The translations under genes were made by a program, and so were the position numbers. From Pseudomonadota bacterium (GTDB lineage: Bacteria > Myxococcota > JACRCW01 > JAFGSX01): DNA of 63,947 nt. Location of the stretch: the NCBI GenBank assembly GCA_043821645.1, contig JBDRCO010000086.1, positions 1 to 63,947 of the forward strand, in the 5' to 3' direction. The notes under the pieces are model-generated. The model searched no databases, was not told where the DNA came from, and saw nothing but the letters and a program-made list of their open reading frames with translations. The number at the start of each line of letters is the position of its first letter. Position 1 is the first letter of the stretch. This document shows positions 11,109 to 61,415 of the stretch, piece after piece.

Positions 11109-11515
11109 CCGCGTCGCGCGCGTCCTCCCTCGACGCCACCACCCTGACTCTGGAGCGGGGTCTCCTTGGCTTCGAGCCGTTCACGGCCTTCACCCTGGCG
11201 CCCATTCCCGAGGCACCGCCCTTCGGCTTGCTCGCATCGGTCGAGGCCTCGGATCTGGGCTTCATCGTGGTCAGCGTTGCGGACGCGGTTCCCGACTTCA
11301 CGCCCACCATTCCGACCTGGCTCACGACCCGGCTCGAACAGGCAGGCGTGCAGCACGTCGAGATGCTGCTGCTGGTGACCGTGGATGCAAGCGGCGCGGC
11401 CTCCGTCAACCTGCGTGCTCCCCTGGTGTTGTGGGAGGGACGTCAGTACGGCGTGCAGGTCGTTCTGGACGAGGCCTTGCCCCTGCGGCACGCCTTGCCC
11501 AGTGGCCAGGGATAA
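11105..11515 (+). CDS. fliW: Flagellar assembly factor FliW
   Basis: GLLGFE..LASVE..LGFIVV..SVNLRAPLVL..QVVL; adjacent to csrA. Confidence 0.85.
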   Translation: MTASRASSLDATTLTLERGLLGFEPFTAFTLAPIPEAPPFGLLASVEASDLGFIVVSVADAVPDFTPTIPTWLTTRLEQAGVQHVEMLLLVTVDASGAASVNLRAPLVLWEGRQYGVQVVLDEALPLRHALPSGQG

Positions 11516-11519
11516 GCCC

Positions 11520-33044: not shown

Positions 33045-34969
33045 CGTGGTCGCTCCTTTCGCGCGATGGTTTCGCCGGGTGCACTGCCTGCCGATGACGG
33101 CGCGGTATGCATGTTGACGATGGTCTGCAGGGCCCGGAGCTGGGCACGCCCCAGGGTGCTGTCGGGCAGCAGGGCCTGCGCGCGATCAGTGCGTCCGACA
33201 CTGGCCAGGCAGCGCGCCTCGGCGTACGTCGCCTGTGATGGGCACAGCATACCTGTCTCGACGAGGGGGAGAGCGGACGCGCTGGTGCCGGGGGGCAGCG
33301 CGCCGCGCTCGTCGAGGAAACGCAGGGTCATTCGATAGCGCGCGTCGTTGCCATCATTCCGGTAGGCCCGCGCCAGCGCGAGGACGTCATCGACCGGGGC
33401 TTGCTCGCCGAGCCGCCTCAGCAGCGCGGTCCGGATCGCGATCTCGCGGGGCCACAGTGCCAGCTCAGCACAGGCTCCGGCAGCCAGGCGCTGCTCGTCG
33501 GGACCGAGCAACTCGTCATGGGTATGGAGCTGAATGCGAAGAATCTGCAGGGGCCGGCCATCGAGCGCGGCGCGCTGCATGGCCGCCCGCGTCAACGTCT
33601 GGATCAGAAGCGTCGGTGCGGTCGGGACCTCCAGCGCTTGCCTCAAGGCGCGGCCTTCCTCGCGGCGCTGGTACAGGCCCAGCGCCAGCCGCAGGCGCAG
33701 CTCGGGACGGAGCGCTCGCAGCGCCGGCTCGCGCAACGCGGCGCGGTAAACCTCGTCGAGCTCTGGTCGACTCGCAGCATCGTCCAGCTCGGCGCGGCGC
33801 AGCTCGAGCCAGGGCGCCTGTGAGGGCAGCACATCGCGACATCTCAGCAGGGCACGCCGAGCGGGCGCGATGTGTCCCTGCTGGGCGTGGATGTCGACAA
33901 TGCGCGCCAGGGCCAGAGCGCACTGGGGACCCTGGGCCTGCACCACACGTGACAGACGGCGCAGCGCTCCTCCGGTGTTCCCAAGGATGCGATGGGCCTC
34001 CGCCAGCAGGAGCGCGAGCTCGTGTCGAGTGCCCAGGGCGGGCTGGCGCTCCTCGGCTCGCAGCAGGAGTGCCGCGCCTTCGCGTTGTGCGCCCTGCGCC
34101 CACCGCGCCACGCCAAGCCACGCCAGGGCCGACGCACCCGCTGCATCACTCCGCAGGGTCATACGCTCGAGCTCGGCGGTCGAGGCCCCGGGGACCTGGG
34201 CCAGCAGGGCGAGCAGCAGCAGGCGATACACCGCAGGGGCGTGGGCGAGTTCGGGCTCGACCAGCTCACGCGCAATGGTGGCATGTCCGGCCTCAAGCTC
34301 GGCGCGCGCCATGAGGTAGCTGGTGCGGACCCGCAGCGGGGAGCCGGGGGCTTGCAGCAGGGCATCTCGCAGCTCGCCAAGGCGCGAGGTCGACGACAGG
34401 GCAGCCCGCCAGGCGCACACATGTCGCGCATCGCCCTGCCCTGGCGTCGCCGCTTCCTGTTGCAGCAGGGCCTCAGCCCGCTGCCCTGCTCCCCGGGCAT
34501 CGCCACGTTTCAGCGCTCCGGCCAGCGCGGCATCTTGGACGGCGGAGGCAAAGGCAGACAGGGGACCATCCGGGAGGTGCGCGAGGCTGGGGGGCAGAGG
34601 CAGCAGGGCCTGCTCGAACAGCGGCGATTCCGGAGCCAGGCGCCGCAGCACACACAGAATCAAGCGCTTTCCCCGGGGCCGATGCTCCACCCACAGCGCG
34701 GCGGCACGTCGGGCGGGTTCAATCTCCAGCAGCTGCCCACGACGCTGCACGCGCCAGACCAGCTCCGGCCGAAGCAGTTCGAGCTGACTCGCCAGTTCCT
34801 CTGCTGTGGACACGGGGCCCAGGGTGCCAACTCCGTACGAGGCATTCCAGTCGAGCTGTACATGCTCATTCGCTGGCAGGGGCAGCTCGCCATAGCGCTC
34901 GCAGTCGCCCACCGGCACGACGGCCAGAAGTCGGGGCAGAAGCAGCGCCGGGAGCAGGAGCTGGGACAT
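33041..34969 (-). CDS. TPR-like helical-repeat protein heading the flgB operon
   Basis: Hydrophobic N-terminus, Ala/Leu-rich TPR-like repeats; stop overlaps flgB start. Confidence 0.65.
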   Translation of the reverse strand: MSQLLLPALLLPRLLAVVPVGDCERYGELPLPANEHVQLDWNASYGVGTLGPVSTAEELASQLELLRPELVWRVQRRGQLLEIEPARRAAALWVEHRPRGKRLILCVLRRLAPESPLFEQALLPLPPSLAHLPDGPLSAFASAVQDAALAGALKRGDARGAGQRAEALLQQEAATPGQGDARHVCAWRAALSSTSRLGELRDALLQAPGSPLRVRTSYLMARAELEAGHATIARELVEPELAHAPAVYRLLLLALLAQVPGASTAELERMTLRSDAAGASALAWLGVARWAQGAQREGAALLLRAEERQPALGTRHELALLLAEAHRILGNTGGALRRLSRVVQAQGPQCALALARIVDIHAQQGHIAPARRALLRCRDVLPSQAPWLELRRAELDDAASRPELDEVYRAALREPALRALRPELRLRLALGLYQRREEGRALRQALEVPTAPTLLIQTLTRAAMQRAALDGRPLQILRIQLHTHDELLGPDEQRLAAGACAELALWPREIAIRTALLRRLGEQAPVDDVLALARAYRNDGNDARYRMTLRFLDERGALPPGTSASALPLVETGMLCPSQATYAEARCLASVGRTDRAQALLPDSTLGRAQLRALQTIVNMHTAPSSAGSAPGETIARKERPR

Positions 34970-34982
34970 GGTGCGTGTCTGA

Positions 34983-34997
34983 GCACAGGCCGTGCCA
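34983..34997 (-). promoter_or_regulatory. Sigma54 promoter of TPR-flgBC-fliE..flgE operon
   Basis: TGGCACGGCCTGTGC on minus strand (GG-N10-GC). Confidence 0.75.
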
Positions 34998-35092
34998 GGT
35001 CTTGCGTCCGCGGCGAGAAAAAAAGACGAGCACTTCTGCCTGGTTCCTGCATCCCGTCGGCGCGGAGCCAGGGTGGGGTGGGTCAATCGCGC

Positions 35093-35126
35093 GTCAACGA
35101 CTTGACGACCTCGTCGCGGCGCCGAC
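35093..35126. promoter_or_regulatory. Tandem 14-bp palindromic enhancer boxes
   Basis: GTCAACGACTTGAC and GTCGCGGCGCCGAC ~100 bp upstream of the sigma54 site, with an A-tract in between. Confidence 0.6.
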
Positions 35127-35132
35127 ACTGGC

Positions 35133-35159
35133 TCCAGATCTCATGGCGCGTGCCGATAG
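35133..35159 (+). promoter_or_regulatory. Sigma28 promoter of MinD-like/PilZ operon
   Basis: TCCAG-N14-GCCGATAG. Confidence 0.65.
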
Positions 35160-35176
35160 CAGACCAAGGGAGTGCC

Positions 35177-36352
35177 GTGGTGCCTTCTCGTCTACACATG
35201 ATCGCCAGTGGCAAGGGTGGTGTCGGCAAGTCCACCGTCGCGGTCGGCCTGGCCGCAGCTCTGGCCGCCGATGGCCGGCGCGTGGTGCTGGTCGACGGAG
35301 ACATGTCTCAGGGGACGCTTCACCTGCATCTGGGCAGCCACCGCCCGGCCCCCGGCATCCGCGAGTTCTTCGCCTCCCCGCGCGCCACCTTGCCGCCGCT
35401 GCTGCAGCCCTGTCCGGCGCTGGGTTTCGAGCTGCTGGGCGCGGGCGGCGAGACCCTTGGCATGACCCACCTGCACGTACAGCGCATCGCTCGCCTGGTC
35501 AGGGCGCTGCGCAAGCTCGACCGCGACGACGTGATCGTGGATCTGGCAGCGGGCAGCGCCAATAACACGCTCGATCTCTATGGAACGGGGGACCTATGCT
35601 ACATCGTCCTGACCCCGGATCCCCCCGCGGTTCTGGCCGCCTTCGCCTTTCTCAAGGCGGCCCTATTCAGGGCCATGCGGCGCAGCCTACCCGATGACAG
35701 TGAACTCGGGCTGGCCACGGCGGCGCTGTACCAGCACGTCAACCTGCGCGAGGCGCCACAACCTGTGGTGCTGGATCTGGTGGCTGGAGAGCAGCGCGAT
35801 CAACTAGAGCAGATCCGCGCCAACCTGCACATTCGCGCCGTGGTCAACTTTGCCGAGAGCGCCAACCCCATGGCGCCAGCCAGCGCAGTGGCCAGCGTGG
35901 CCCGGGAGCGCCTGGGCCTGCACACCCAGGCTGTGGGCGCCCTCCCTGCATCGTCGGTCATCGCCCACGCCCTGAGACAAGGGCAGCCCTGGCCGAACGT
36001 TGCCCCCGAACTGGCGCTCCGCCTGCGCGCCTGGACCGCGGTGCAAGCCGAACCTATGCCGGCGCCGCCGTCACCCGTCGCCTGCGTCATCGGCTTCAAC
36101 GAGGAGGTGGTGCGAGGTAGCCTCAACCTGCACGTGCAGACCGAGGACCTGGGGGCGGCGGGACAGGTGCTAAGCCTGGTCTACCTCGGAGGGCGTGTGG
36201 TGTTTCGCATACAGCGCCCGCTCCTCCCCGACGGGGAGGCGAGCGAGCTTCGTGCCACGGCCGTGCAGCACCAGCACCGGACCGTCATCCTCGGCATCCT
36301 GGGCGGAAAGCTGGACCGGGTGCTCTCGGGCCTGCGGGAGGATGCTGCATGA
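35177..36352 (+). CDS. MinD/FlhG-family ATPase with extra C-terminal domain
   Basis: GTG after AAGGGAG; IASGKGGVGKST, LVDGD, IVDLAAG; C-terminal GFNEEV..HVQTEDLG..QH..GKLD extension. Confidence 0.85.
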   Translation: MVPSRLHMIASGKGGVGKSTVAVGLAAALAADGRRVVLVDGDMSQGTLHLHLGSHRPAPGIREFFASPRATLPPLLQPCPALGFELLGAGGETLGMTHLHVQRIARLVRALRKLDRDDVIVDLAAGSANNTLDLYGTGDLCYIVLTPDPPAVLAAFAFLKAALFRAMRRSLPDDSELGLATAALYQHVNLREAPQPVVLDLVAGEQRDQLEQIRANLHIRAVVNFAESANPMAPASAVASVARERLGLHTQAVGALPASSVIAHALRQGQPWPNVAPELALRLRAWTAVQAEPMPAPPSPVACVIGFNEEVVRGSLNLHVQTEDLGAAGQVLSLVYLGGRVVFRIQRPLLPDGEASELRATAVQHQHRTVILGILGGKLDRVLSGLREDAA

Positions 36353-40755: not shown

Positions 40756-41866
40756 CGACGACTCGGACGTGATGTTCGCCCTCGAGAGCGAGCTCTCCGA
40801 CCGCTACCAGGTGTTTGCCACGGACAGCCCGGTGCGGGCCCTGCAGATGGCACAGGCCGAGAGCTTTGACCTGCTGGTCACCGACGTGCGCATGCCCCAG
40901 CTCACGGGCATCGAGCTGTCTGCGCTGGCCCAGCAGGCGCAGCCGGATCTGCCCACGGTCTTCGTCAGTGCGTACAACGACAGCGACGCCACCGACGCCA
41001 TCCTCGAGCGGCCCGGTTGCTTCAAGGTCAACAAGCCCTGGCACGATGCGCTACAGGTGATCGTCGAGCGTGCCTTGGAGTACCGGGCCCTGCGCAACTC
41101 TCAACAGGGGTCCAACCCCGCCAGCCAGCGCGTGGCCATGCTGGGCCTGCGCGCGGCGGGACTGGTCCACGACCTGCGCAACCACCTAGCGACGCTGGGG
41201 CTCAACCTTGACATCGCCCTGCCGTCTCTGGAACTGGCGGTGACCACCTTGCAGCAGCTCTCGGCTGCACCCAATCTGGACCGCCGCTCGATGTTTGAGC
41301 TGTCGACGCTGGTGCAGGAGCAGTGCGTGGCCTCGGTGCGCGAGAGCATCGACGTGATGAGCCGTATCCACGATCTGGTGGCCAGTTCCGTGGCCCTGAT
41401 TCGCGGCGAGGGGATGGGTGGCGCTGCCTCGCTCGAGCTGGCTGTCGAGAAGGCCATCGCCCAGGTGCAGGCCATGCTGCCCAGCCACATCCAGTCCAAG
41501 CTCCAGCCCGGGCTCTGTGTCGTCATGGCCGAGGTCAACCTGACGCGGGTTGTCAGCAACCTGCTGTTCACAGCGGCCCGGGCCTCGCAGCCGCGGGATG
41601 GCGAGATCCTTGTGCGGACCTGGTCCGAGGATGATCTGGCCTACATCACCGTCGAGGACAGCGGACCAGGTCTGGACCCGGTGCGCGCGCTGCGGCTGGG
41701 TGATCCGACGCAGCCAACGAGCGTGGACGGCAGCCTGGCAGGCCTGGGACTGAGCGTCTGCAGCGACCTGCTGCTGTCGGCCGGTGGTTGCCTGCGCTGG
41801 CGGCGGCGCTCGGGGGGCGGATCGATGTTCGTGGCTCGCATGGTGCGCTCGAGTGATGCAGCTTGA
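40727..41866 (+). CDS. Hybrid receiver-histidine kinase (N-box degenerate)
   Basis: LLVVDDD..VTDVRMP..NKPW; AGLVHDLRN; NLLFTA; EDSGPG; GLGL. Confidence 0.82.
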   Translation: MSTPRLLVVDDDSDVMFALESELSDRYQVFATDSPVRALQMAQAESFDLLVTDVRMPQLTGIELSALAQQAQPDLPTVFVSAYNDSDATDAILERPGCFKVNKPWHDALQVIVERALEYRALRNSQQGSNPASQRVAMLGLRAAGLVHDLRNHLATLGLNLDIALPSLELAVTTLQQLSAAPNLDRRSMFELSTLVQEQCVASVRESIDVMSRIHDLVASSVALIRGEGMGGAASLELAVEKAIAQVQAMLPSHIQSKLQPGLCVVMAEVNLTRVVSNLLFTAARASQPRDGEILVRTWSEDDLAYITVEDSGPGLDPVRALRLGDPTQPTSVDGSLAGLGLSVCSDLLLSAGGCLRWRRRSGGGSMFVARMVRSSDAA

Positions 41867-41909
41867 GAAGCCTCCTTTCAGAGCTGCGCTGACGGTGATG
41901 GGGTGTGGG

Positions 41910-42827
41910 ATGGCGCGTATCCAGTATGACCAGCAGACCAATCGCACGACCACGGGTACGAGCTATGTTTGCGCGGAGTCCGCCGAGGCTCCGGACTCGA
42001 ACGCGACAGTGCTGCTGAGCTTGCGACGGCAGGTGCTGTCCCTGCTCAATAGTCCGGACTACACGCCGCCATCGCTGCCCGAGCGCGCTCTTGAGCTCGA
42101 ACACATGTGCATGCACCTGGACACACCAGTACAGGCCCTGACTGCCGTCATCTCGCAGGACAGCAACCTGACGGCCGCGGTGCTGCGCGCCGCCAACTCG
42201 GTGTTCGCGCGGCGCACCGGTCGAACCTTCACCAGCCTGGATCGCGCGGTGCTGCAGATCGGCTTCAACGGCCTGCGCACCGTCACCTTTGCCATGTCCA
42301 TGCGGGCTGTGTTCCTGCGCACCTCGCTGAACCTGGAGCTGATGCGGAACTGCTTTCAGCATAGCCTGGCGGTCGCGCACGGGGCGTCCTGGCTGGCCGA
42401 GCGCGCCCAGCTGGATCAGGGCAGCGCCTACGTGGCCGGGCTGCTGCACGACATCGGCAAGGTCATCGTGCTGCATGCCCAGGAGAAACTCGCCGCGGGC
42501 ATGACCACCAAGCATGATCCCGCTCACCTGCAGGAGCTGCTCGACTCCCTGCATCAGGAGGTGGGGAGCCGGTTTGCCAGGAGCTGGGGACTGTCCGAGC
42601 CTGTCGTCGAGGTCTGTTCCCGTCACCACCGGGTCGGCCCGCGCCAGGGTCTGACCTCGCTGGTCGCCAGCGCGAACCGGTTGACCCGGTGCATTGGCCT
42701 GTCCCTACGCCAGCCCGAGTCCTGCGACGCCGCCTTCGCGGAACTGGCACAGCAGGGACTGGCGATGACCGAGATCGAGGATCTGATCCAGTCTCTGCAG
42801 GAACATGCGCTGGGCCTCGCCGACTGA
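41910..42827 (+). CDS. HDOD-domain protein
   Basis: PSLP..DSNLTAAVLRAANS..HSLAVA..AGLLHDIGK..HQEVG..WGL; start uncertain. Confidence 0.88.
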   Translation: MARIQYDQQTNRTTTGTSYVCAESAEAPDSNATVLLSLRRQVLSLLNSPDYTPPSLPERALELEHMCMHLDTPVQALTAVISQDSNLTAAVLRAANSVFARRTGRTFTSLDRAVLQIGFNGLRTVTFAMSMRAVFLRTSLNLELMRNCFQHSLAVAHGASWLAERAQLDQGSAYVAGLLHDIGKVIVLHAQEKLAAGMTTKHDPAHLQELLDSLHQEVGSRFARSWGLSEPVVEVCSRHHRVGPRQGLTSLVASANRLTRCIGLSLRQPESCDAAFAELAQQGLAMTEIEDLIQSLQEHALGLAD

Positions 42828-42987: not shown

Positions 42988-43002
42988 CGGCACGTTCCTT
43001 GA
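42988..43002 (+). promoter_or_regulatory. Sigma54-like promoter of motA operon (-12 GA variant)
   Basis: CGGCACGTTCCTTGA. Confidence 0.5.
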
Positions 43003-43030: not shown

Positions 43031-43804
43031 ATGGATCTCGCGACGATTCTCGGTGTCCTCATGGCCTTCGGGCTGGTCCTCGGTTCCATTGCCGTGGGCG
43101 GCAGTGCCATGGCCTTCGTCAATGTGCCATCGATCGCCATCGTGCTTGGAGGGACCACCGGCGCTGTGCTCATCAACTATCCCCTGGCCGATGTCATCGG
43201 CATGCTGCGGGTGGTCAAGAATGCGTTCACCACCCCATCCTTTGCACCCGCCGAAGTGATTCGCCACCTGGTGGAGTTCGCCGGCAAGGCTCGCCGAGAA
43301 GGACTGCTCTCGCTCGAGGGAGACCTGGCCAGCATCCAGGACAAGTTTCTGGTCGAGGGCATACAGCTCGCAGTGGACGGACAGGACGCGGCGGCCATCG
43401 ACAGCGTGCTGTCCCAGTCCATCGAGTCACTCAAGGAGCGACACAAGCTGGGGGCCGAGGTGCTGACGACCTTTGGCACCTTCGCGCCAGCACTCGGACT
43501 CGTCGGGACCCTGGTCGGACTGGTGCAGATGCTGCAGAACATGAGCGATCCGTCGTCGATCGGGCCCTCGATGGCGGTGGCACTGTTGACCACGCTGTAC
43601 GGCGCCATCCTCGCCAATCTGGTGTTCAACCCGCTTGCGGGCAAGCTGCGCACGCGCTCGTCGCGGGAGGTGCAGAGCCGCGAGCTGGTGCTGGCCGGCG
43701 TGCTTTCCATCTGCACGGGTGACAACCCGAGGGTCGTCGAGCGAAAGCTCCTGGCCTACCTCGCGCCGCAGCAGCAGGCCCAGATGACGCCGGCGGGGGA
43801 GTGA
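43031..43804 (+). CDS. motA: Stator A subunit (MotA/PomA type)
   Basis: MDLATILG; ARREGLLSLE; APALGLVGTLVGL..GPSMAVALLTTLYG; GDNPR. Confidence 0.96.
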   Translation: MDLATILGVLMAFGLVLGSIAVGGSAMAFVNVPSIAIVLGGTTGAVLINYPLADVIGMLRVVKNAFTTPSFAPAEVIRHLVEFAGKARREGLLSLEGDLASIQDKFLVEGIQLAVDGQDAAAIDSVLSQSIESLKERHKLGAEVLTTFGTFAPALGLVGTLVGLVQMLQNMSDPSSIGPSMAVALLTTLYGAILANLVFNPLAGKLRTRSSREVQSRELVLAGVLSICTGDNPRVVERKLLAYLAPQQQAQMTPAGE

Positions 43805-44475
43805 CGATGGCGCGACGTCGGCAGGCGGCAGCAGCGGCGGCAGAGGGAGGCGGCAGTGGTGGGTTCGCCGTGCTCTTCACCTCGCTGTCGGTGATCTTGC
43901 TGGCCTTCTTCATCCTGCTCAATTCCCTTGCCACGATGGACGGTCGGCGGCGTCGGGCGGCTCTGGGTTCCCTGGTCGGAAGCTTCGGAACACTCCCGGG
44001 AGGTTTCGGTCTCGATCCTGAGGGCGAGGTCCTGGGGCGCGAGGTCGGGCTCACCGAGTCCGAGGAGCAGCGCGTGTTCGCTGCCTTCAGCAAGGCCATC
44101 GCCCAGGGTGAGACCGCGGCCGAGTTGCAGAACGAGGGTGGCCGCTGGACGCTGCGCTTGCGGCAGGATGCGCTGTTCTCGCGCGGCCTGCACGAGGTCA
44201 ACCCGCGCTACTTCCCCATCCTCGATCGTGCAGTCGAGGTTGCCCGCCAGACCAACCGTGCCCTGGTGGTGCGCGGCCACGCGGACGGTGGCCCCCTGCG
44301 CCAGCACAACTGGCTGATCTCGGCGCGGCGAGCAGCAGCCGTGGGTCGCTTCCTGATCGAGGCAGGAGGGTTGCCCGGGAACCAGGTTCGCGTCGAGGGC
44401 CTGGGAGATACCCAGGCCGACACCCAGGAATCCAAGGACTCGGCCTCTCGGCGAGTGGACGTGGTGTTCGAGTGA
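43801..44475 (+). CDS. motB: MotB-family protein 1 (TM lacks conserved Asp; intact OmpA-like domain)
   Basis: TM FAVLFTSLSVILLAFFILL; VRGHAD..NWLISARRAAAV..RRVDV. Confidence 0.85.
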   Translation: MTMARRRQAAAAAAEGGGSGGFAVLFTSLSVILLAFFILLNSLATMDGRRRRAALGSLVGSFGTLPGGFGLDPEGEVLGREVGLTESEEQRVFAAFSKAIAQGETAAELQNEGGRWTLRLRQDALFSRGLHEVNPRYFPILDRAVEVARQTNRALVVRGHADGGPLRQHNWLISARRAAAVGRFLIEAGGLPGNQVRVEGLGDTQADTQESKDSASRRVDVVFE

Positions 44476-45221
44476 GCGCCTCGTCGCGGCACAAGACCGA
44501 GGACGCGGGTCCCGCACTCGACCCCAATGGCTGGATGCTGTCGTTCAGCGACACGCTGACCAACCTGCTGTGCTTCTTCGTGCTGCTCCTCACAATGTCG
44601 TCCATGGACGCCAGGAAGCTCAAGGAGACCTTCGGATTCTTCGATGCCGCGGCGGGGGCCCTGGACTACAACAGCCAGAATGCGTCGGAGATCGGCCCCA
44701 GCGAGGTCCAGCCCGTGGTGTCCAATGCCCTGGCCTCCGACGTGGCCAAGGCTCTTCGGCTGCACCTTGCTGGCAGCGAGGACCCGCTGACCGCCGCCCA
44801 GGAGGTCCTGCGACCCTACTCGGCCCTGGGCGACCTCATGGTGGTGGTACAGCGTGCGGACGGGCTGCACGTGGACATCGCCCATGCGGCCCTGTTCGAC
44901 GAACAGGACAGGTTGACCGCCGACGGACGGGCCCTGCTCAACGCCATGGCGACGCTGACCCAGAGCAGTGGTCTGCGCCTGCTCGCCACCGTCTGGTGCG
45001 CGCGTGCCGAGTCCTTTGTACCCGTCCTGAAGACGAAGCCGGATTCCTGGGAGCGGGCTGCAACCCTGGGGCAACTCGTGCTGCAGGTGCTGGGATCCCC
45101 GCGCGAGCGCCTGGCGACGCTGCGCCTCGGTTTGCGAGGCGATGGGGTCGACACTGGACCAGGGGCCGACGGGCATGCAAACAAGCTCGAAATCGTGCTG
45201 CAGCAACCTCGAGGAGATTGA
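44472..45221 (+). CDS. motB: MotB-family protein 2 (TM Asp present; OmpA-like domain degenerate)
   Basis: WMLSFSDTLTNLLCFFVLLLTMS; no GHTD/NxxLSxxRA motif, only an SWERA remnant. Confidence 0.8.
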   Translation: MSASSRHKTEDAGPALDPNGWMLSFSDTLTNLLCFFVLLLTMSSMDARKLKETFGFFDAAAGALDYNSQNASEIGPSEVQPVVSNALASDVAKALRLHLAGSEDPLTAAQEVLRPYSALGDLMVVVQRADGLHVDIAHAALFDEQDRLTADGRALLNAMATLTQSSGLRLLATVWCARAESFVPVLKTKPDSWERAATLGQLVLQVLGSPRERLATLRLGLRGDGVDTGPGADGHANKLEIVLQQPRGD

Positions 45222-45223
45222 CC

Positions 45224-45712
45224 ATGGCGACGACTGCCGAACCCGCCCAGGTGGCACGTTCCACGCCTCGCGTGATCTGGATCTTGCTCGTCGTCAACCT
45301 GGCCACGCTGGGGGCTGCCGGCATTGCCGTGGCGACCGCCCTGCGCACCCCGCCCGCCGCTGCCGCCGCAGAGTCTCCACCCGTCGAAGCCAAGCCCATC
45401 GTGACGCCGGTCAGCGGGCCTCGGCTGGCACTGGAGACCTTCGTGGTCAACCTCGACGAACCGGGTGGCAACCGCTACCTCAAGCTGCAGATCACTGTCG
45501 AGCTGCAGCGCGAGGAGGCGCGCGCCCCCTTCAACGAGGACGTGGCGCGGGTGCGCGATGGTCTCATCGCCTACCTGTCGAGCCAGCGACTGGACGACAT
45601 TCGCGGCGCCGAGGGAAAGCTTCGGATCAAGGAGGGCATACAGGAGAGACTGTCCGAGCTCACCCCTGGGCTGGTGCGGGCGGTCTACCTGACGGATTTC
45701 GTCGTGCAGTGA
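45224..45712 (+). CDS. fliL: FliL
   Basis: Single TM; FVVNL..RYLK..VRD..VYLTDFVVQ. Confidence 0.95.
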   Translation: MATTAEPAQVARSTPRVIWILLVVNLATLGAAGIAVATALRTPPAAAAAESPPVEAKPIVTPVSGPRLALETFVVNLDEPGGNRYLKLQITVELQREEARAPFNEDVARVRDGLIAYLSSQRLDDIRGAEGKLRIKEGIQERLSELTPGLVRAVYLTDFVVQ

Positions 45713-50784: not shown

Positions 50785-52880
50785 CGGCCTGGCGTGGCGA
50801 GGCCGTGCTGGCCCTGATCATCGTGGCTGTGCTGGCGGTGATGATCGTCCCCATGGCGCCCCCCATGCTGGACGCCCTGCTGGCGATCAGCATCTCCAGC
50901 TCGATCCTGATCCTCCTGGTGTCGTTGTCCGGCACACGTCCCCTCGAGTTCTCGGTGTTTCCAACCCTGTTGCTGGTGACCACCATCTTTCGCCTCGGCC
51001 TCAACGTCGCGTCGACGCGCCTCATCCTGCTCAACGGCGCCAGCGGAACCGGCGGCGCGGGACGGGTGGTCGGTGCCTTCGGAAACTTCGTGGTGGGCGG
51101 CAACGTGGTGGTGGGGCTGGTGGTCTTCGCCATCCTCGTCATCATCAACTTCGTCGTCATCACGCGAGGCGCAGGCCGCATCGCCGAGGTGTCCGCACGC
51201 TTCGTGCTCGACGCACTGCCTGGCAAGCAGATGAGCGTGGATGCCGAGTTGGGCTCGGGGGCGCTGAACGACATCGAGGCACGGGCGCGGCGCTCGGCGA
51301 TCGAGCAGGAGGCCGACTTCTTCGGCGCCATGGACGGCGCAAGCAAGTTCGTGCGCGGCGACGCGGTGGCGGGGCTGATCATCACCGGCATCAACATCGT
51401 CGGCGGTCTGGTGGTGGGTACCCTGCAGCACGGCATGACCCTGGCCGGGGCGGCGCGCAGCTTCACCATCCTCACCGTTGGCGACGGGCTGGTGTCGCAG
51501 ATCCCCGCGCTCCTCATTTCGACCGCGGCCGGTGCCGTCGTCACCCGTGCCTCCACCGGCAACGCCCTCGCGCCGACCCTTGGCCAGCAGGTGTTTGGTG
51601 ATGCCGCGCGCCTGCGCATGGCAGCAGCGGCGGCGGTCGTGATCGGGCTAGTGCCAGGCATGCCCCTGATCCTGTTCGTCGGGGTGGCGGGCGTGTTCCT
51701 GTTGCTCGCCAGGCGTGCCTCGAAGCACGCGGCCGGCGCCCGAGCTCCGGCGGCACCCACCCCGACCCACGCCGAAGGCTCGGTCGAAGAGGCCCTGGAA
51801 CTGGATCGCCTGCAACTCGAGGTGGGCTACGCGCTGGTCGAGCTGGTGGATGCTAGCAAGGGAGGAGAGATCCTGCGCCGACTGCAGGCGGTGCGACACC
51901 AGATCGCCACCGAGCTCGGCCTGATCTTGCCCTCGGTGCATGTGCGCGACGACCTGACGCTGGCCCCCGGCGGATACCGCATCCTGCTCACAGGTCAACC
52001 CGTCGCCAGTGGCGAGCTGCGCAAGGGCGAGCTGCTGGCCATGACTACGGGCGAGGACACGCTGCTGCAGCAAATCCCAGGTGTCGACACCCACGACCCA
52101 GCCTTTGGCCTGACCAGTCGCTGGATCTCGCGCCAGAGCCAGACCCTGGCCGAGCAGCTCGGCCTCGCCACCGTCGATGCGGCGACCGTCCTTGCCACGC
52201 ATTTCTCCGAGGTGGTGCGGCAGCACGCGGCCGAACTACTGGGGCGACAGGAGGTGCATCGGCTGATCGAGCACCTGCAGGCCAGCGTACCCAAGCTGGT
52301 CGAGGATCTCGTCCCAGGTCAGCTCAGTGTTGGTGATGTGCATGCGGTTCTGCGGGGCCTGCTGCGCGAGGGGGTGTCCATCCGCGACCTGCAGACCATC
52401 TTCGAGGCTCTGGCAGAGTGGAGCCCCAAGGCGACGACGACGCGTGAGCGCATCGAGGGTGTGCGCAGGGCCCTGGCGCGCCAGATCTGCACCCCGCTGT
52501 TGCAGCCGGGAGGCGCCATCTGGGCCTACTTCCTGGATCGCCGCACCGAGCAGAGCCTGCGCGACAGTCTCCTGGTGGTCGACGGAGATCCGGCGCTGGC
52601 GCCAGATCTTGGTGCGGCGCGCCGCCTGCTCGTCAGCGTCGAGCGCGCGCTGTCCGAGTTCGAGCGGCGCGACCTGATGCCCGTGCTGGTGGTGGCCGCC
52701 GACCTGCGTTGCCCGCTGCGGGACCTGATTCATCGCTTCCTCAAGGGTGTCACCGTACTGTCCCACCGCGAGCTGCCACGCCATGCCGAGCTCCGTGCCC
52801 TGGGCGTGCTCGGTGAAGACGCAACTCCTCCCGGCTCTGTGCCCATCGCAGCCACGAGCGAGGTTCTCCCATGCGCATGA
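50781..52880 (+). CDS. flhA: FlhA
   Basis: FSVFPTLLL..LNVASTR; RIAEVSARFVLDALPGKQM; GAMDGASKFVRGD. Confidence 0.98.
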   Translation: MTAWRGEAVLALIIVAVLAVMIVPMAPPMLDALLAISISSSILILLVSLSGTRPLEFSVFPTLLLVTTIFRLGLNVASTRLILLNGASGTGGAGRVVGAFGNFVVGGNVVVGLVVFAILVIINFVVITRGAGRIAEVSARFVLDALPGKQMSVDAELGSGALNDIEARARRSAIEQEADFFGAMDGASKFVRGDAVAGLIITGINIVGGLVVGTLQHGMTLAGAARSFTILTVGDGLVSQIPALLISTAAGAVVTRASTGNALAPTLGQQVFGDAARLRMAAAAAVVIGLVPGMPLILFVGVAGVFLLLARRASKHAAGARAPAAPTPTHAEGSVEEALELDRLQLEVGYALVELVDASKGGEILRRLQAVRHQIATELGLILPSVHVRDDLTLAPGGYRILLTGQPVASGELRKGELLAMTTGEDTLLQQIPGVDTHDPAFGLTSRWISRQSQTLAEQLGLATVDAATVLATHFSEVVRQHAAELLGRQEVHRLIEHLQASVPKLVEDLVPGQLSVGDVHAVLRGLLREGVSIRDLQTIFEALAEWSPKATTTRERIEGVRRALARQICTPLLQPGGAIWAYFLDRRTEQSLRDSLLVVDGDPALAPDLGAARRLLVSVERALSEFERRDLMPVLVVAADLRCPLRDLIHRFLKGVTVLSHRELPRHAELRALGVLGEDATPPGSVPIAATSEVLPCA

Positions 52881-53854
52881 AGCAGATCGAGGCCTCCACG
52901 CTCAAGGAGGCCCTGGCCCAGGCTCACCGGGAACTCGGTCCCAGCGCCGTCCTGCTGGCAACCCAGGAAGTACCTCCGCTCTCCAAGCTGGGCCTGGGGA
53001 GACCTCGGGTTCGCATCACCGTGTCCATCGACGAGCCAGCCGATCGCTTCGGCAAGCCCTACCTGGATACCTCCCTGCACCGCGCAGCGGAGAGACTGGA
53101 CCGCGCCCTGCAGCACCCCGAGAGTCCAGCCGAGGAGGCTCGCCACCAGGTGGCGCGGCAGGCCCTGCGCGCACCGCAGGCGCTCAAGGGCGCACAGCTG
53201 CGGGAGCTGCTGTCGCGCCTTCATGTTTTGCCTCCTCCGTGGCGCAAGGATGGACCTCGCGTCGTGCTGGTGGTTGGCGCCAGCGGCGTTGGCAAGACGG
53301 TGACGTCGGCCAAGCTGGCAGCACATGCGCGCCACTTCCACCGCTGCAGTTCCGGGCTGATCAGCGCCGACGCAGTTCGCATCGCAGGCCATGACCAGCT
53401 GTCGAGCTACGCCCGGATCCTCAACATCCCGTTCAGTGCGGTCGAGACGTCTGCCGAGCTGGAGCGTGCGCTGCACCAGCTACGGAGCTGCCGGCTCATC
53501 ATCGTCGACACTGCGGGCTGCAACCCGATGGTCGCCTCGGAACTCGGTGAGGCTGTGCAGCTCCAGAACGCCCTGCGATCCCGGGCCCAGGTCGAGACCC
53601 ACCTGGTCATCTCGGCGACCCAGGGCAGCGACGACCAACTCGCCTGCTGCGATGCCTTCGTCCAGGCTCGAGCGGTCGATGCCCTGCTGTTCACCAAGAT
53701 CGATGAGACCCGGCAGCCCGCGCAGGTCGTGCACACCGCCGTCCGCTCGGGCTTGCCGGTGAGCTTGCTGTCCGCCAGCAGTCAGGTGCTGGGGCGCCTG
53801 CAGGCCGCCCAACCCGAGTTTCTTGCTCGTCTATCCATGCACGATGCCGCCTGA
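52871..53854 (+). CDS. flhF: SRP-family GTPase FlhF
   Basis: ELGPSAV; GASGVGKT; VDTAG; TKIDE; between flhA and flhG. Confidence 0.92.
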   Translation: MRMKQIEASTLKEALAQAHRELGPSAVLLATQEVPPLSKLGLGRPRVRITVSIDEPADRFGKPYLDTSLHRAAERLDRALQHPESPAEEARHQVARQALRAPQALKGAQLRELLSRLHVLPPPWRKDGPRVVLVVGASGVGKTVTSAKLAAHARHFHRCSSGLISADAVRIAGHDQLSSYARILNIPFSAVETSAELERALHQLRSCRLIIVDTAGCNPMVASELGEAVQLQNALRSRAQVETHLVISATQGSDDQLACCDAFVQARAVDALLFTKIDETRQPAQVVHTAVRSGLPVSLLSASSQVLGRLQAAQPEFLARLSMHDAA

Positions 53855-53867
53855 AGGAGTGGTCCCT

Positions 53868-54704
53868 ATGAGCGTGCCGAACTCCATGACACCGCGATCC
53901 TCCGACCTGCGAGTGCTGGCCATCGCCAGCGGAAAGGGTGGTGTGGGCAAGACCATGCTCAGCTCCAACCTGGCCTGGGCGCTGGGCAGCATGGATAAAA
54001 AGGTCCTGATCGTCGATGCCGACCTGGGCCTTGCAAACGTCGACATCGTGCTCGGGCTAGCTCCGGCGTATCACATCGGGCACCTGCTCAGTGGTCAGCG
54101 TAGCCTGGACGAGGTTCTGGTCACCGCAGCCCCCAACGTGATGGTGCTGCCGGCAGCCAGCGGTATCGCCGAGCTGGCCGAGATGAGCGACGCGCACAAG
54201 CTGGCCTTCCTGTCCGTGCTCGACGAACTCGAGCGCCGCTTCGACTTCATCATCATCGACAACGCCGCGGGTATTGGCAAAAACGTCATTTACTTCACTG
54301 GCGCCGGGCAGGAGGTGCTGATCGTCATCACCCTCGAACCGACCTCGATCACGGATGCCTACGCTGCCATCAAGATCCTTTCACAGAACGCCGGCATCAC
54401 CCGCTTCGATCTGGTCGTCAACATGGTGGCAAGCCTCCAGGAGGCCGAGGATGTCTTTGCCCGGCTCACCACCGTGGCATCGCGCTTCCTCGATGTGCAG
54501 ATCCGACTGCTGGGGTCCATTCAGCGGGACCAGAGCACCTCACGGGCGGTGCTCGCGCAGCAACCCCTGCTTTCACTGTTCCCACAGTCGCCCGCCAGCC
54601 GCTGCGTGCGGCGTATCGCCGAGACTCTCGCGGCGCGTACCCCCGAGCACCTGGTTGGTCGGTCCAGCGTCACACATCCCCGGATGCCCGGGGTGGCACT
54701 GTGA
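53868..54704 (+). CDS. flhG: MinD-like ATPase FlhG/FleN
   Basis: IASGKGGVGKT; DADLGLANVD; EPTSITDAYA. Confidence 0.95.
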   Translation: MSVPNSMTPRSSDLRVLAIASGKGGVGKTMLSSNLAWALGSMDKKVLIVDADLGLANVDIVLGLAPAYHIGHLLSGQRSLDEVLVTAAPNVMVLPAASGIAELAEMSDAHKLAFLSVLDELERRFDFIIIDNAAGIGKNVIYFTGAGQEVLIVITLEPTSITDAYAAIKILSQNAGITRFDLVVNMVASLQEAEDVFARLTTVASRFLDVQIRLLGSIQRDQSTSRAVLAQQPLLSLFPQSPASRCVRRIAETLAARTPEHLVGRSSVTHPRMPGVAL

Positions 54705-58131: not shown

Positions 58132-58183
58132 TTGACGTATATTTAATTTGTTCAGTATAACAGTTTTATGTCTATCAAGTCAA
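58132..58183. promoter_or_regulatory. Overlapping divergent sigma70 promoters in AT-rich switch region
   Basis: Plus strand TTGACG-N18-TATAAC (58132-58161); minus strand TTGACT-N18-TATACT (58183-58154). Confidence 0.7.
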
Positions 58184-58677
58184 ACACAATGTCACAGTCT
58201 TCTCCCAATTCAGCGACCGAGACGCTCCAGGGTGGTGTCTCCAAGGATGCGAGCCAGATCGGCCAGCGCATCCGGGAGGCGAGAAAGACGCTTGGCCTGA
58301 ACCAGCGAGATTTCTCGGCTCGCATCGGAAAGCACTACAACACCGTGGCAGCCTGGGAAGCGGGGTCGAGCCTACCGGACCTGAGCGTGGGCAAGGCCCT
58401 CGCACGGGAGCTCGGCGTGCCCTTTCTGTGGCTGGCAACGGGTGAGGGGGACCCCGCGTCGAAGGACGACCCGATTCCGCGCCCGCTGGATCTCAAGCTG
58501 TTCACGGACACGATGCGCGTGTTTGTCCACGAGGAAGACGCCCAGGGCAGCGCGCTCGATGCCGAGAAGGCCTGGCAGGTTTTCTTGACGCTCTGCAAGC
58601 TGACGCTCGCCATCGGCCGGACGCCAGAACCGGACCTCGTCTCTCAGATCTTCAAGCTCTCCGGCAATCAAGGATAG
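58168..58677 (+). CDS. XRE-family HTH repressor
   Basis: IGQRIREARKTLGLNQRDFSARIG..TVAAWEAG..P..LARELGVPFLWLATGEG. Confidence 0.9.
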   Translation: MSIKSNTMSQSSPNSATETLQGGVSKDASQIGQRIREARKTLGLNQRDFSARIGKHYNTVAAWEAGSSLPDLSVGKALARELGVPFLWLATGEGDPASKDDPIPRPLDLKLFTDTMRVFVHEEDAQGSALDAEKAWQVFLTLCKLTLAIGRTPEPDLVSQIFKLSGNQG

Positions 58678-58939
58678 GACAGCGCCTTGGATAGGACCGA
58701 ACCTCGAAACGCGATCCACGCACGGTCGAGGTGGACTCTGAACTGCAGCAGCCGCGCGTTCACCAGCAGAGTTCCCGGGCCGGCTCCAGGGTTCACGGAT
58801 GTCCGACGTGTTCTGTCTGCTTCTATCCCGGTCTCCGAGAAAATTGTGGATGGTCCTCGCAGACCGGTCTTCCTGGCTCGCTTCATCGAACTTCTCATGA
58901 AGACACGACCGCAGGAGCCGGCGATACGGAAGCAGGCGA

Positions 58940-59075
58940 GGTTACCCGATGTGAGCCAGCTGCGCTGCCTCACTCGGGCCTCGCCATGGGCTGCGCCCCT
59001 GGACCCCGCCAGCGCGGACGCAAGGAACGAGGCCTCGTACCGGAGATCCCCAGGGGCTCCGCCCCTTCGACCCCG
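58940..59075. other. Putative oriT region
   Basis: Immediately upstream of mobC; CTGGCTCA on minus strand (58959-58952) resembles the ColE1 nic CTGG/CTTA; repeated GGGCT.CGCCCCT..GACCCC motifs at 58988 and 59053. Confidence 0.5.
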
Positions 59076-59083
59076 GAGGAAGA

Positions 59084-59410
59084 ATGGCAGAGAGCAAGCT
59101 GAAGCGCATTCAATTCCGAGTTACCGAAGCAGAGCATGAACTCATCATGGAGAAGGTCGAGGCCTCGGGACTGACCATGGCCGCACTGTTCCGGGATCAC
59201 CTCGGGAAGGTCAAGGTGCGCAACCGCGTGGACGAGCGCAACCGCTACATCATGCTCCGACGCATCTCGAACAGCCTGAACCAGATCGCCCGCTGGGCGA
59301 ACACGCACAAGAGTGGAGCCGACGCGGTCAGGATCGTCGGCCTCCTCGGCGTGGTGCAGGCGACCATCGAAAGGTTGATCTACCGGATGGACGAGGTGAC
59401 AAGTGCCTAG
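59084..59410 (+). CDS. mobC: Relaxosome accessory protein MobC/MbeC
   Basis: RHH-like IQFRVTEAEHE..SGLTMAALFR; LRRISNSLNQIARWAN. Confidence 0.92.
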   Translation: MAESKLKRIQFRVTEAEHELIMEKVEASGLTMAALFRDHLGKVKVRNRVDERNRYIMLRRISNSLNQIARWANTHKSGADAVRIVGLLGVVQATIERLIYRMDEVTSA

Positions 59411-59654
59411 GACAGAGTTCGAGCACCTGCAGGAGCTGGCCCTGTCGAGGGCACTCGAGGAGCTGGAGGCCGAGAAGGCCGGCTGGAAAGAAGAGAAGGG
59501 GATGATGATCGAGATTCTGAGCCAGCTGAACAGGAGAGTGAAAGAGCTGACCCGGGACATCAGCGTCCTGTCCGCCAAGTTCGAGGAGAAGGTGGCGAAC
59601 GACGAGGCGATCGCCGCGCTCCTTGCCGGTCTGAACGCTGACGCGTCGCGCTAG
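59403..59654 (+). CDS. Small coiled-coil protein, MbeD/MobD-like
   Basis: TEFEH..LSRALEEL..W..LNRRVKELTRDISVLS; coupled to mobC. Confidence 0.5.
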   Translation: MPRTEFEHLQELALSRALEELEAEKAGWKEEKGMMIEILSQLNRRVKELTRDISVLSAKFEEKVANDEAIAALLAGLNADASR

Positions 59655-59666
59655 GGGCGAACGGTC

Positions 59667-61415
59667 GTGATCATCGTCTTCCCGAAGCATCCCCCGGGCG
59701 GCAGTGGTCGCAGGGCCATCAACTACCTTGTCAACAAGCAAGACCGTCAGATCGAGGCAGAGGTCCTCCGCGGCGACCCGGAACAGACCGCAAGGCTCAT
59801 CGACTCCCTCGAGTTCAGACACAAGTACACGTTCGGGATCTGTTCCTTCGCTCCAGGCGAGACCGTCGCGCCAGAGGTCGAGCAGAAGATCATGGATAGG
59901 TTCGAGTCAGCGGCCTTTGCCGGTCTTGAACGGGACCAGTACGACATCCTTTGGGTCCGTCACACCGACAAGGGGCACCACGAGCTGCACTTCGTCGTGC
60001 CGAGGGTCGAGCTGAGCTCTGGCAAGTCCTTGAACATCTGCCCTCCCGGTTCCAATGCCTACTTCAACGCACTGGGCGACTCCATCAACTTCGAGTACGG
60101 CTTTGCCGACCCGCGCGCCTCGACCAGGCAAAGAGAGCACAGGCTGCCCCACCACGCGGAGAAGCTCCGGGCCGAGACGCAGCGCATGCTTGGTGTGTCG
60201 AGGGTGGCGCCGAGCGAGGTGCTGCACGAGCGGCTCTGTGCGTATGCCCTGGAGAACCGGGAGAGGTGCATCACCCGCACGGACCTGATCGCGTATCTCG
60301 AGGCAGAGGGGCTGGAGGTGCCCAGGGTCGGCGACAGGTACATCACGGTCAAGCTGCCGGACCTGGACCTTCGATGGCGGCTGCGAGGCGCCATGTACGA
60401 GAAGGGCTGGGACTCGTCCAAGCTCCGGGATCTCGAGCGCGACGACACCATCCGCACAGGGGCACAGCCCGAGAAGGCTCGCCTGGCCATGGCGGCGCTG
60501 ACCGAGATGAGCGAGAAGCGGGCCGAGTACAACCAAGGACGGTATGGCCGCGAGTTCACCGACCGCGAGCTCGAGCGCCAGCTGGCGCACCAGGTCTTGC
60601 TCTCCAGGCTGGTCCGGGCAATGCCCAGCGTGCACGAGGCTGCACAGCAGGACGACCGTCTCCGGTTGAACCACCTGGCACGCAAGAACCTGCTCCTGAT
60701 GAAGTCAATCGACGCAGAGGTCGCGTGCAGCGATGCGAGAGCGTCAAGGGGCGTTGCCGATGGTGAGCACCTCGCATCGCTGAACGCCGCGCGATGCCGC
60801 GCCGAGCAGAGCATCCGAAGCTTCCTCCATCCCCCCAATGCCGAGGAGCACGCCAGGGGCCTTGCAGGCGAGAGACTGGTCGACATCGTGGGGGAGGCCG
60901 ACTCCCGCAACCAGGCCAGGCAGCTCATCGACAAGCACCTCGAAGCCTGTCTTGGCCACGCGCCCGACCGCGACGCGGTGGTCAAGACACTCGAGCAGGA
61001 AGGCTTTCGCATCACCCGGTCTGGCAAGGATTACCTGACCGTCCAGGACCCCGCGCGGGGCGATCGGTGGCGACTCACTGGACCCATGTACGAGGCCTGG
61101 GGGCGCTCTCGAACGACCTGCGACGACGGGCGCCCGCTGGAGCCGGACAACCATCGCAGGACGTCCCGGGGCGAGATCCATGGACAGCATCTGAAAGAGA
61201 GGCTGGGTGCTGAGCTGCTGTCGCTGATGACCGCGAGCGACGATCTGGGTGCACGGATGGGCAACCTGCATCTGTCCGGACAGGCGCTCGACAGGGCTCC
61301 GTCCTTCAGATGGACGGCCGCCGGCATGGCACCGCTCGTCGAGTACGATCGCGTCGACGAGTCCCGGTCCAGGAAGAAGAGAAAGAAGAAGTGGGTCGAG
61401 CGGGAGCGGGGCTAG
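59667..61415 (+). CDS. Relaxase, ColE1 MbeA-like (MOBP5)
   Basis: GSGRRAINYL; VLRGDP..LIDS..KYT; YDILWVRHTDKGHHELHFVVPRVELSSGK. Confidence 0.9.
   Translation: MIIVFPKHPPGGSGRRAINYLVNKQDRQIEAEVLRGDPEQTARLIDSLEFRHKYTFGICSFAPGETVAPEVEQKIMDRFESAAFAGLERDQYDILWVRHTDKGHHELHFVVPRVELSSGKSLNICPPGSNAYFNALGDSINFEYGFADPRASTRQREHRLPHHAEKLRAETQRMLGVSRVAPSEVLHERLCAYALENRERCITRTDLIAYLEAEGLEVPRVGDRYITVKLPDLDLRWRLRGAMYEKGWDSSKLRDLERDDTIRTGAQPEKARLAMAALTEMSEKRAEYNQGRYGREFTDRELERQLAHQVLLSRLVRAMPSVHEAAQQDDRLRLNHLARKNLLLMKSIDAEVACSDARASRGVADGEHLASLNAARCRAEQSIRSFLHPPNAEEHARGLAGERLVDIVGEADSRNQARQLIDKHLEACLGHAPDRDAVVKTLEQEGFRITRSGKDYLTVQDPARGDRWRLTGPMYEAWGRSRTTCDDGRPLEPDNHRRTSRGEIHGQHLKERLGAELLSLMTASDDLGARMGNLHLSGQALDRAPSFRWTAAGMAPLVEYDRVDESRSRKKRKKKWVERERG

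Follow-up and report, generated by a model that had tools for sequence, protein, structure and literature searches.

A flagellar operon with one motA and two complementary motB genes: a candidate for a mixed stator unit

To our knowledge, all current models of flagellar stators, and also those of the Tol, Ton, Agl and Zor 5:2 motors, assume two identical central subunits with alternating aspartates. In the canonical model, as presented in the accessible parts of two sources (PMC12890895; bioRxiv 10.64898/2026.04.14.718414), the unit has two half-channels and two alternating aspartates, and ten ions pass per MotA turn. Here we describe a motA-motB1-motB2 trio located at positions 43031-45221 (forward strand) of the contig JBDRCO010000086.1 (assembly GCA_043821645.1 of a Pseudomonadota bacterium; GTDB: Myxococcota; JACRCW01; JAFGSX01). 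The contig was analysed at its full length of 63,947 nt and is called the window below. Whereas each of the two identical B chains of a canonical unit contributes an aspartate and an anchor, at least in the sources as far as available, the window has two B genes, each of which lacks one of these features. The best reading of this locus is a mixed MotA5-MotB1-MotB2 unit, a proposal to which we give even chances; that both B proteins share one MotA ring is what we infer from gene linkage and from the complementary retention of the two features.

The closest published system, as far as its description is accessible, is the motA-motB1-motB2 operon of Aquifex aeolicus (Takekawa et al. 2015, PMC4525482). 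There, likewise, two motB genes come after a single motA, and their products differ strongly in their periplasmic parts, as in the window pair. However, the N-terminal and helix regions of the Aquifex MotBs are 97% identical, both contain the aspartate, and either transmembrane region, as part of a chimera, supported motility together with MotA (PMC4525482). In the window, MotB1 and MotB2 are about 18% identical overall, their helices differ (FAVLFTSLSVILLAFF versus WMLSFSDTLTNLLCFF), and MotB1 is devoid of the aspartate. In the same phylum as the window, the gliding motor AglR5-AglQ-AglS of Myxococcus xanthus is a 5:2-type motor with two unlike B-type subunits; according to the available portions of the reports (PMC11761067, PMC9389320), this heterodimer was proposed from structure prediction only. 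Unlike the window trio, it is a non-flagellar motor of the TolQ/TolR type, whose B subunits have neither an OmpA domain nor a MotB plug, and both AglQ and AglS are described there as having a conserved aspartate, which MotB1 has not. With respect to the canonical MotA5MotB2 and PomA5PomB2 units (6ysf of Clostridium sporogenes, 8brd/8bri of Vibrio, 6ykm of C. jejuni), the MotA of the window is a close relative (E 4e-65 to 1e-28). As in these stators, both B proteins possess a short N-terminus, one helix, a plug region, a linker and an OmpA-like domain, and the genes are part of a flagellar operon ahead of fliL and fliM. The same gene order is furthermore found in motA-motB-motB operons from the same phyla, which we did not find in print and in which both copies keep the aspartate.

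A search of the literature, with most subscription journals outside its scope, yielded neither an aspartate-less MotB nor a motA-motB-motB trio with an aspartate-less copy. With respect to MotB heterodimers or paralogues, it returned only the Aquifex case, MotAB1/MotAB2 pairs, and MotB1/MotB2 as chain names within a homodimer. In the main text of a MotAB survey (mBio 2025, PMC12505986), to the extent available, the terms "aspartate", "D32" and "two MotB" have 0 occurrences.

The trio consists of three uninterrupted and tightly coupled open reading frames (ORFs). These, their diagnostic sites and the adjacent fliL are:

43031-43804, forward strand: motA (ATG at 43031, TGA at 43802-43804; 257 amino acids), the sole flagellar-type A subunit of the operon
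43801-44475, forward strand: motB1, a MotB paralogue without the aspartate and with an intact OmpA-type wall-binding domain
43882-43884, forward strand: TCG codon of MotB1, a serine at the column of the essential MotB aspartate, assigned by alignment with MotBs of the same phylum
44275-44334, forward strand: wall-binding motif GHAD...NWLISARRA of MotB1, as read from the sequence
44472-45221, forward strand: motB2 (249 amino acids), a MotB that keeps the aspartate as well as a helix and a plug of canonical type, and whose OmpA-like domain is degenerate
44550-44552, forward strand: GAC codon of MotB2, the ion-binding aspartate Asp27
44985-45059, forward strand: motif remnant of MotB2, ATVWCAR for IEGHTDN and DSWERA for SNWxLSxxRA
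45224-45712, forward strand: fliL (Pfam FliL, 5.3e-22), with its ATG at 45224, two bases past motB2

For motB1, two start codons come into consideration. The GTG at 43801 forms a GTGA overlap with the motA stop and gives 224 residues, the serine being Ser28; the ATG at 43807 is preceded by a Shine-Dalgarno-like GGGGAG run and gives 222 residues with Ser26. The stop codon is TGA 44473-44475, which again overlaps as GTGA with the start of motB2 (GTG at 44472; stop codon 45219-45221). A sequence-only reading of this DNA had claimed stop-to-start overlaps of the genes, a serine at position 28 of MotB1 in place of the transmembrane aspartate together with an intact peptidoglycan-binding motif, and in MotB2 the retained Asp27 together with a lost GHTD/NxxLS motif. 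All these claims are borne out, with two qualifications: motB1 may start at ATG 43807, and the loss in MotB2 comprises the exchange of the GHTD aspartate by alanine and of the asparagine by serine, the arginine of the RA pair being retained.

Non-identical B1/B2 pairs amounted to 69, of which 61 were complete. In these pairs, the distribution of the aspartate is strict: it occupies the helix column in 0 of 61 MotB1s and in 61 of 61 MotB2s. The MotB1 orthologues have serine (34), alanine (20), threonine (5), cysteine (1) or asparagine (1) at this position, i.e. one of the first three residues in 59 of 61 cases, a pattern beyond chance. The membrane helix of the window's MotB1 contains no other acidic residue, and 60 of the 61 orthologues have neither aspartate nor glutamate in the helix; the exception is a residue at its cytoplasmic edge. 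The wall-binding domain of MotB1 was detected by the Pfam model OmpA with 54.2 bits (1.9e-14), and the score was above the Pfam cut-off in 60 of 61 orthologues, among which G157, D160, A176 and R216 are nearly invariant. The MotB_plug model gave 28.3 bits for the window's MotB1 (cut-off 24); the 61 orthologues all matched it at E 0.01 or better, 36 of them above the cut-off, which was reached by 61 of 61 MotB2s.

MotB1 might also be seen as an accessory anchor: MotB2 homodimers would fill the MotA pore, and MotB1 would stand outside the pore and lend its peptidoglycan-binding domain by attaching to the periplasmic domain of MotB2 or to a periplasmic scaffold, as MotY or the T-ring does for PomB. 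Accessory partners of stators that bind the wall, MotY for example, are known, the OmpA domain is the most constant feature of MotB1, and the C-terminal domains of both proteins are homologues sharing the MotB-C fold, which forms dimers in crystals. We consider this arrangement improbable nevertheless. F34, F35 and S55 are invariant and L27, I30, L32, L38, A52, F60 and G61 are conserved to at least 90% in the 61 rows, and the MotB1 helix with the adjoining ALGSLxGSFG stretch is conserved to the same degree as the MotB2 helix, which is unexpected for a simple tether. In this pattern, the helix is conserved like a packed helix rather than a mere anchor, which supports the heterodimer reading. 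Moreover, the entire MotB architecture is retained in register in MotB1, and a wall-fixed subunit outside the rotating MotA ring would block rotation. The AlphaFold2 model of MotB1 (predicted local distance difference test, pLDDT, 79.2) comprises a transmembrane helix at residues 18-42, a further helix at 46-59 and a beta-alpha domain.

MotB2 has the opposite combination of features. Asp27 as well as W21, F35, F36, V37 and M42 are invariant in all 61 orthologues, and the Pfam scan of the window's MotB2 gave a MotB_plug match of 50.4 bits (1.7e-13) and no OmpA match. The motif residues G, H, T and D, which 40, 35, 29 and 37 of the 61 family members possess, are replaced in the window's MotB2 by V, W, C and A, respectively, and serine takes the place of the asparagine present in 31 of the 58 filled rows of its column. 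In OmpA-like domains, diaminopimelate is bound by the aspartate of GHTD and the arginine of LSxxRA. With these exchanges, this domain of MotB2 may no longer bind peptidoglycan. The fold itself appears to be preserved: the AlphaFold2 model has a mean pLDDT of 73.7, with values of 72 to 92 for most 10-residue blocks of the C-terminal domain, and the beta-alpha-beta-alpha-beta-beta arrangement of this domain was matched by Foldseek to Helicobacter pylori MotB-C (3s0h, E 2.3e-7) and also to Bacillus subtilis MotS, Salmonella MotB-C and PomBc. According to this model, MotB2 retains a MotB-type fold in its C-terminal half, and hhalign aligned MotB2 with the MotB1 profile over the full length with a probability of 99.2.

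The conservation of the trio was assessed at several levels. A search of 1.84 billion cluster representatives (50% identity) with a MotB1 profile resulted in 171 matches at E 1e-30 or better. Among the best 150 of these, 139 contain the helix, with the following residues at the aspartate column: Ala 53, Ser 49, Thr 8, Gly 2, Gln 1, gap 1 and Asp 25. Accordingly, at least 113 of the best 150 representatives are without the aspartate. The labels given by the sources to the matches are "OmpA family protein", "hypothetical protein", "chemotaxis protein MotB" and "flagellar motor protein MotB". When a MotB2 profile was run against 401 genomes of the phylum, near-full-length matches turned up in nine, namely the window's own genome, five from family f12 and three from family f4. 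In each of the nine, motA is followed by MotB1 (with serine or alanine) and then by MotB2 (with aspartate); fliL is located 3' of motB2 in each of the eight loci extending beyond motB2, and the order motA-B1-B2-fliL-fliM is the same in the relatives. Close relatives of the window genome are few, and in the only other member of its family the locus was not found with the query used; the titles of records with identical loci are those of Myxococcota and Myxococcales metagenome-assembled genomes (MAGs).

Seeding a genome scan with MotB2 motifs yielded 80 loci, and in 24 of them an aspartate-less MotB lies immediately upstream. According to the MAG labels, the hosts of these 24 are Myxococcota, Thermodesulfobacteriota, Desulfomonilia, Syntrophaceae, Bacteriovoracaceae, Desulfofervidaceae, Methylomirabilis and Thiohalorhabdus; for the aspartate-less copies, every displayed name or title that gives an organism is that of a MAG. 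A metagenome scan seeded with MotB1 motifs alone returned 56 loci, 53 with and three without an aspartate-less MotB1. An aspartate-bearing MotB follows immediately 3' in all 45 loci with enough downstream DNA (the other eight run off the contig), and motA is upstream of MotB1 in all of these loci where that DNA exists. The gap between the two motB genes has a median of 2 nt and is at most 30 nt in 51 of the 61 complete pairs, start codons having been assigned by a heuristic. In summary, the trio is found in three Myxococcota families and, in a looser form, across several phyla.

These findings bear on another explanation, namely that motB1 or motB2 is a functionless, decaying duplicate. It is true that each gene lacks something that a canonical MotB is considered to require. 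However, both reading frames are intact, and the ratio of nonsynonymous to synonymous substitution rates (dN/dS) is far below 1: for the sole pair with unsaturated dS it is 0.083 (B1) and 0.055 (B2); dS is saturated in all other pairs, whose values are only rough. Both motB genes are under purifying selection. In addition, the at least 113 aspartate-less clusters at 50% identity, the gene order kept across phyla and the invariant residues specific to each paralogue make this explanation hardly credible.

In order to follow the history of the two genes, a FastTree phylogeny of 172 rows and a quick IQ-TREE phylogeny of 99 rows under a mixture model were computed; the 99 rows are a hand-picked diversity subset of the 172, from which the short row L126 was dropped. 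Both are quick, unrooted trees with support values from the Shimodaira-Hasegawa approximate likelihood-ratio test (SH-aLRT) only. A single branch (SH-aLRT 88) separates the upstream copies, i.e. the aspartate-less MotB1s together with the upstream copies of tandems having two aspartates, from the rest, except that one additional row falls among them; another branch (SH-aLRT 98) sets apart the downstream copies, with one row added and one absent. MotB1 and MotB2 of the window each belong to a clade of 13 rows (SH-aLRT 99 and 95), and the 13 loci are identical in both cases. The B1 and B2 genes have thus co-diverged, and the aspartate-less partner is an old trait.

Among the 61 MotB2s, OmpA was above the cut-off in 45, below it in three, and without a match at E 0.01 in 13. 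In the 12 loci of the window's clade which were tested (L156 was excluded), the maximum was 43.3 bits; six had no match and one was below the cut-off. Some loci outside the 13-locus clade are also weak in this respect. The anchor decay of MotB2 looks like a later, shared step in the lineage of the window. Strain-specific decay, which the sequence-only reading had named as one of the outcomes that would refute it, does not describe the paired defects: the trio recurs, its B genes are under purifying selection and have co-diverged. What is general and old is an aspartate-less MotB between motA and an aspartate-bearing motB; the motif loss in MotB2 is a derived state, the window's 13-locus clade being one in which it occurs.

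Several loci deviate from the common pattern. L106, L107, L127, L135, L139 and L146, which carry Desulfovibrionaceae or Desulfobacteraceae labels, are motB-motB tandems with the aspartate in both copies. In the trees, the upstream copies of such tandems join the MotB1 lineage, and the downstream copies mostly the MotB2 lineage; these loci may represent a stage preceding the loss of the aspartate. The genomes of family f12 possess a second stator operon beside the aspartate-less trio (L210 = G022:C56, L211 = G036:C48), consisting of motA, a MotB with the aspartate and without a recognisable GHTD/LSxxRA motif, and a MotB with both aspartate and motif. The upstream copies of L106 and L135 were likewise flagged as motif-less by a cruder regular expression.

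The mixed unit can be formulated as follows. In the genomes where the trio is the only stator found, the only aspartate is on MotB2, the only canonical anchor is on MotB1, and the genes form one coupled operon; the simplest account is therefore that they form one unit. A MotA pentamer would enclose a MotB1/MotB2 heterodimer, giving an A5B1B2 complex of seven chains and 1,756-1,758 residues, depending on the start of MotB1. MotB2 would contribute the sole ion-binding aspartate and the canonical plug; from MotB1 would come the functional peptidoglycan anchor and a permanently neutral helix, in which serine or alanine replaces the aspartate. With respect to its origin, an old duplication of motB may have given rise to an upstream and a downstream copy, of which the upstream one subsequently lost its aspartate; in the lineage of the window, the wall-binding residues of the downstream copy would then have decayed, as we propose because MotB1 in the same complex still anchors. 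A mixed unit would be the usual outcome of a complementary degeneration of a duplicated homodimer. During rotation, the neutral residue of MotB1 could act as an always-protonated aspartate, which crosses the hydrophobic interface without awaiting an ion. An ion would be needed only at every second 36-degree step of the MotA ring, and one ion might drive 72 degrees. That the trio encodes a widespread natural single-aspartate stator, consuming about 5 rather than 10 ions per MotA revolution, is a more speculative part of the proposal, which we put forward tentatively and with some doubt.

The gene content of several genomes is of importance here. In the window genome (94.7% complete), only two MotB_plug matches were found, B1 and B2, whereas five further MotA_ExbB matches exist elsewhere; in G066, G071 and G106 (92, 92 and 70% complete), the trio likewise supplies the only MotB genes found. 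As the trio is the only MotB source in these genomes, motility there must run on it. This has to be compared with a second arrangement, in which two kinds of homodimeric units are formed: a conducting MotA5-MotB2(2), held at the motor by means other than canonical peptidoglycan binding, and a wall-anchored, non-conducting MotA5-MotB1(2), which serves as a brake, a placeholder or a regulator of stator number. The homodimer is the normal state of MotB, and the match of MotB1 to the plug region is in agreement with such units. Yet the genomes with the trio as sole stator would be left without any unit having both the aspartate and a canonical anchor. A constitutively co-translated competitor would waste half of the MotA made, and random pairing would make half of the units mixed anyway. 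Finally, the anchor decay in MotB2 only and almost never in MotB1 is left unexplained. We therefore regard two homodimers as an unlikely arrangement.

Several observations weigh against the mixed unit, and some of them at the same time favour two homodimers. The contact between B1 and B2 is itself something we infer: predictions of the full-length MotB1-MotB2 complex, based on a 61-row alignment for each protein, reached 0.27 and 0.29 as compared to a mark of 0.32, which speaks neither for nor against binding. Two proteins acting in separate complexes of one machine would be expected to show the same linkage and co-divergence. MotB2 keeps a canonical OmpA domain in about three quarters of the pairs (the 45 of 61 given above); its homodimers could be complete stators there and MotB1 an accessory. 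Even in the window's MotB2, the motif arginine, which is present in 52 of 61 MotB2s, is kept. Lone MotBs with no MotB1 upstream and with altered motifs exist, namely L121 (a Myxococcota MAG; GFAE...KRG) and L108 and L136 (Planctomycetota MAGs; GHAA); therefore, a decayed motif is no proof of partner dependence. In Aquifex, each of the two MotBs worked alone with MotA as a chimera, according to the accessible text (PMC4525482). An incompleteness of 5-30% of the genomes leaves room for an unseen stator. Within the 13-locus clade, the metagenome contig L156 has an upstream copy with the aspartate and an intact OmpA motif, which represents either retention or reversal of the aspartate; its row is cut at the contig start and has a long branch.

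The observation that a stator operon with one aspartate-less central-subunit gene has been kept across many lineages, and that the other central-subunit gene has given up its canonical wall anchor in the window's lineage, is of relevance under each arrangement. If one ring is shared, the asymmetric stator allows a direct test of the need for ion sites, of the number of ions per turn and of the sufficiency of a single anchor. If it is indeed a single-aspartate unit, it has a different gear ratio of ion flux to torque, and a strict alternating cycle of two aspartates is not obligatory for 5:2 motors. If the rings are not shared, MotB1 constitutes a new conserved, non-conducting stator-like unit, whose role as brake, placeholder or scaffold would itself be new. 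In any case, more than 100 clusters that are now labelled just "OmpA family protein" or "MotB" form a family which merits a separate name.

The type of ion cannot be deduced from MotA. The protein matches the Pfam models MotA_ExbB (2.8e-29) and MotA_N; the nearest solved chains are Clostridium sporogenes MotA (6ysf/8ucs, 4e-65) and Vibrio PomA (8brd/8bri, 5e-61), of which the former scores equal to the latter against the window's MotA. The sequence-only reading had called this protein PomA-like on account of its GTL and LLTT motifs and had taken them as a hint of sodium coupling. This hint is not supported: the GTL and TT motifs are present also in C. sporogenes MotA (6ysf) and therefore are no mark of the PomA type. 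Furthermore, the NCBIfam PomA model reached 275.8 bits, which is below its cut-off of 341 bits, with the MotP and MotA models close behind. Judged by these comparisons, sodium coupling is not inferable from MotA.

The trio is embedded in a complete flagellar cluster. On the 3' side, fliL is followed by fliM, fliN, fliO, fliP, flhB, flhA, flhF, a MinD-like flhG and a sigma-28 gene. On the 5' side are flagellins, flaG, fliD, fliS, flgI, rod and hook genes, fliI, fliH, fliG and fliF, together with genes for a sigma-54 activator, for two histidine kinases and for an HDOD protein. A candidate sigma-54 promoter ahead of motA at 42988-43002 (TGGCAC-N5-TTGC, two mismatches) was dropped, as such matches are not clearly above chance in the window: 103 were found versus 83.5 +/- 9.1 expected, and 2 of 100 shuffles reached 103. 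A search of public sequencing runs gave no RNA run containing the locus and three DNA runs, with shares of 0.32, 0.25 and 0.11.

Some further genes of the window deserve mention. A gene for an HDOD-domain protein (41784-42824) is located directly 5' of motA, and one for a receiver-HDOD protein is encoded earlier in the cluster (5185-6393); at the locus of a relative (L015), an ORF resembling an HD/HDOD-type protein, as judged by eye, lies 3' of motB. Inside the flagellar cluster, a protein of 786 amino acids (33992-36349) has a central P-loop domain of the ParA/MinD type and is distinct from the FlhF/FlhG pair (52871-54701). An ORF of 836 amino acids (11385-13892), situated between a flagellin-like gene and a flagellin gene, has a high third-position G+C content and no Pfam match at E 1e-5. 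Directly past the flagellar cluster, the stretch 58168-61412 encodes a helix-turn-helix protein, a mobilisation protein of the NikA/MobC type and a relaxase of the MobA/VirD2 type; its G+C content is lower (0.60-0.64), and it may be the edge of a mobile element.

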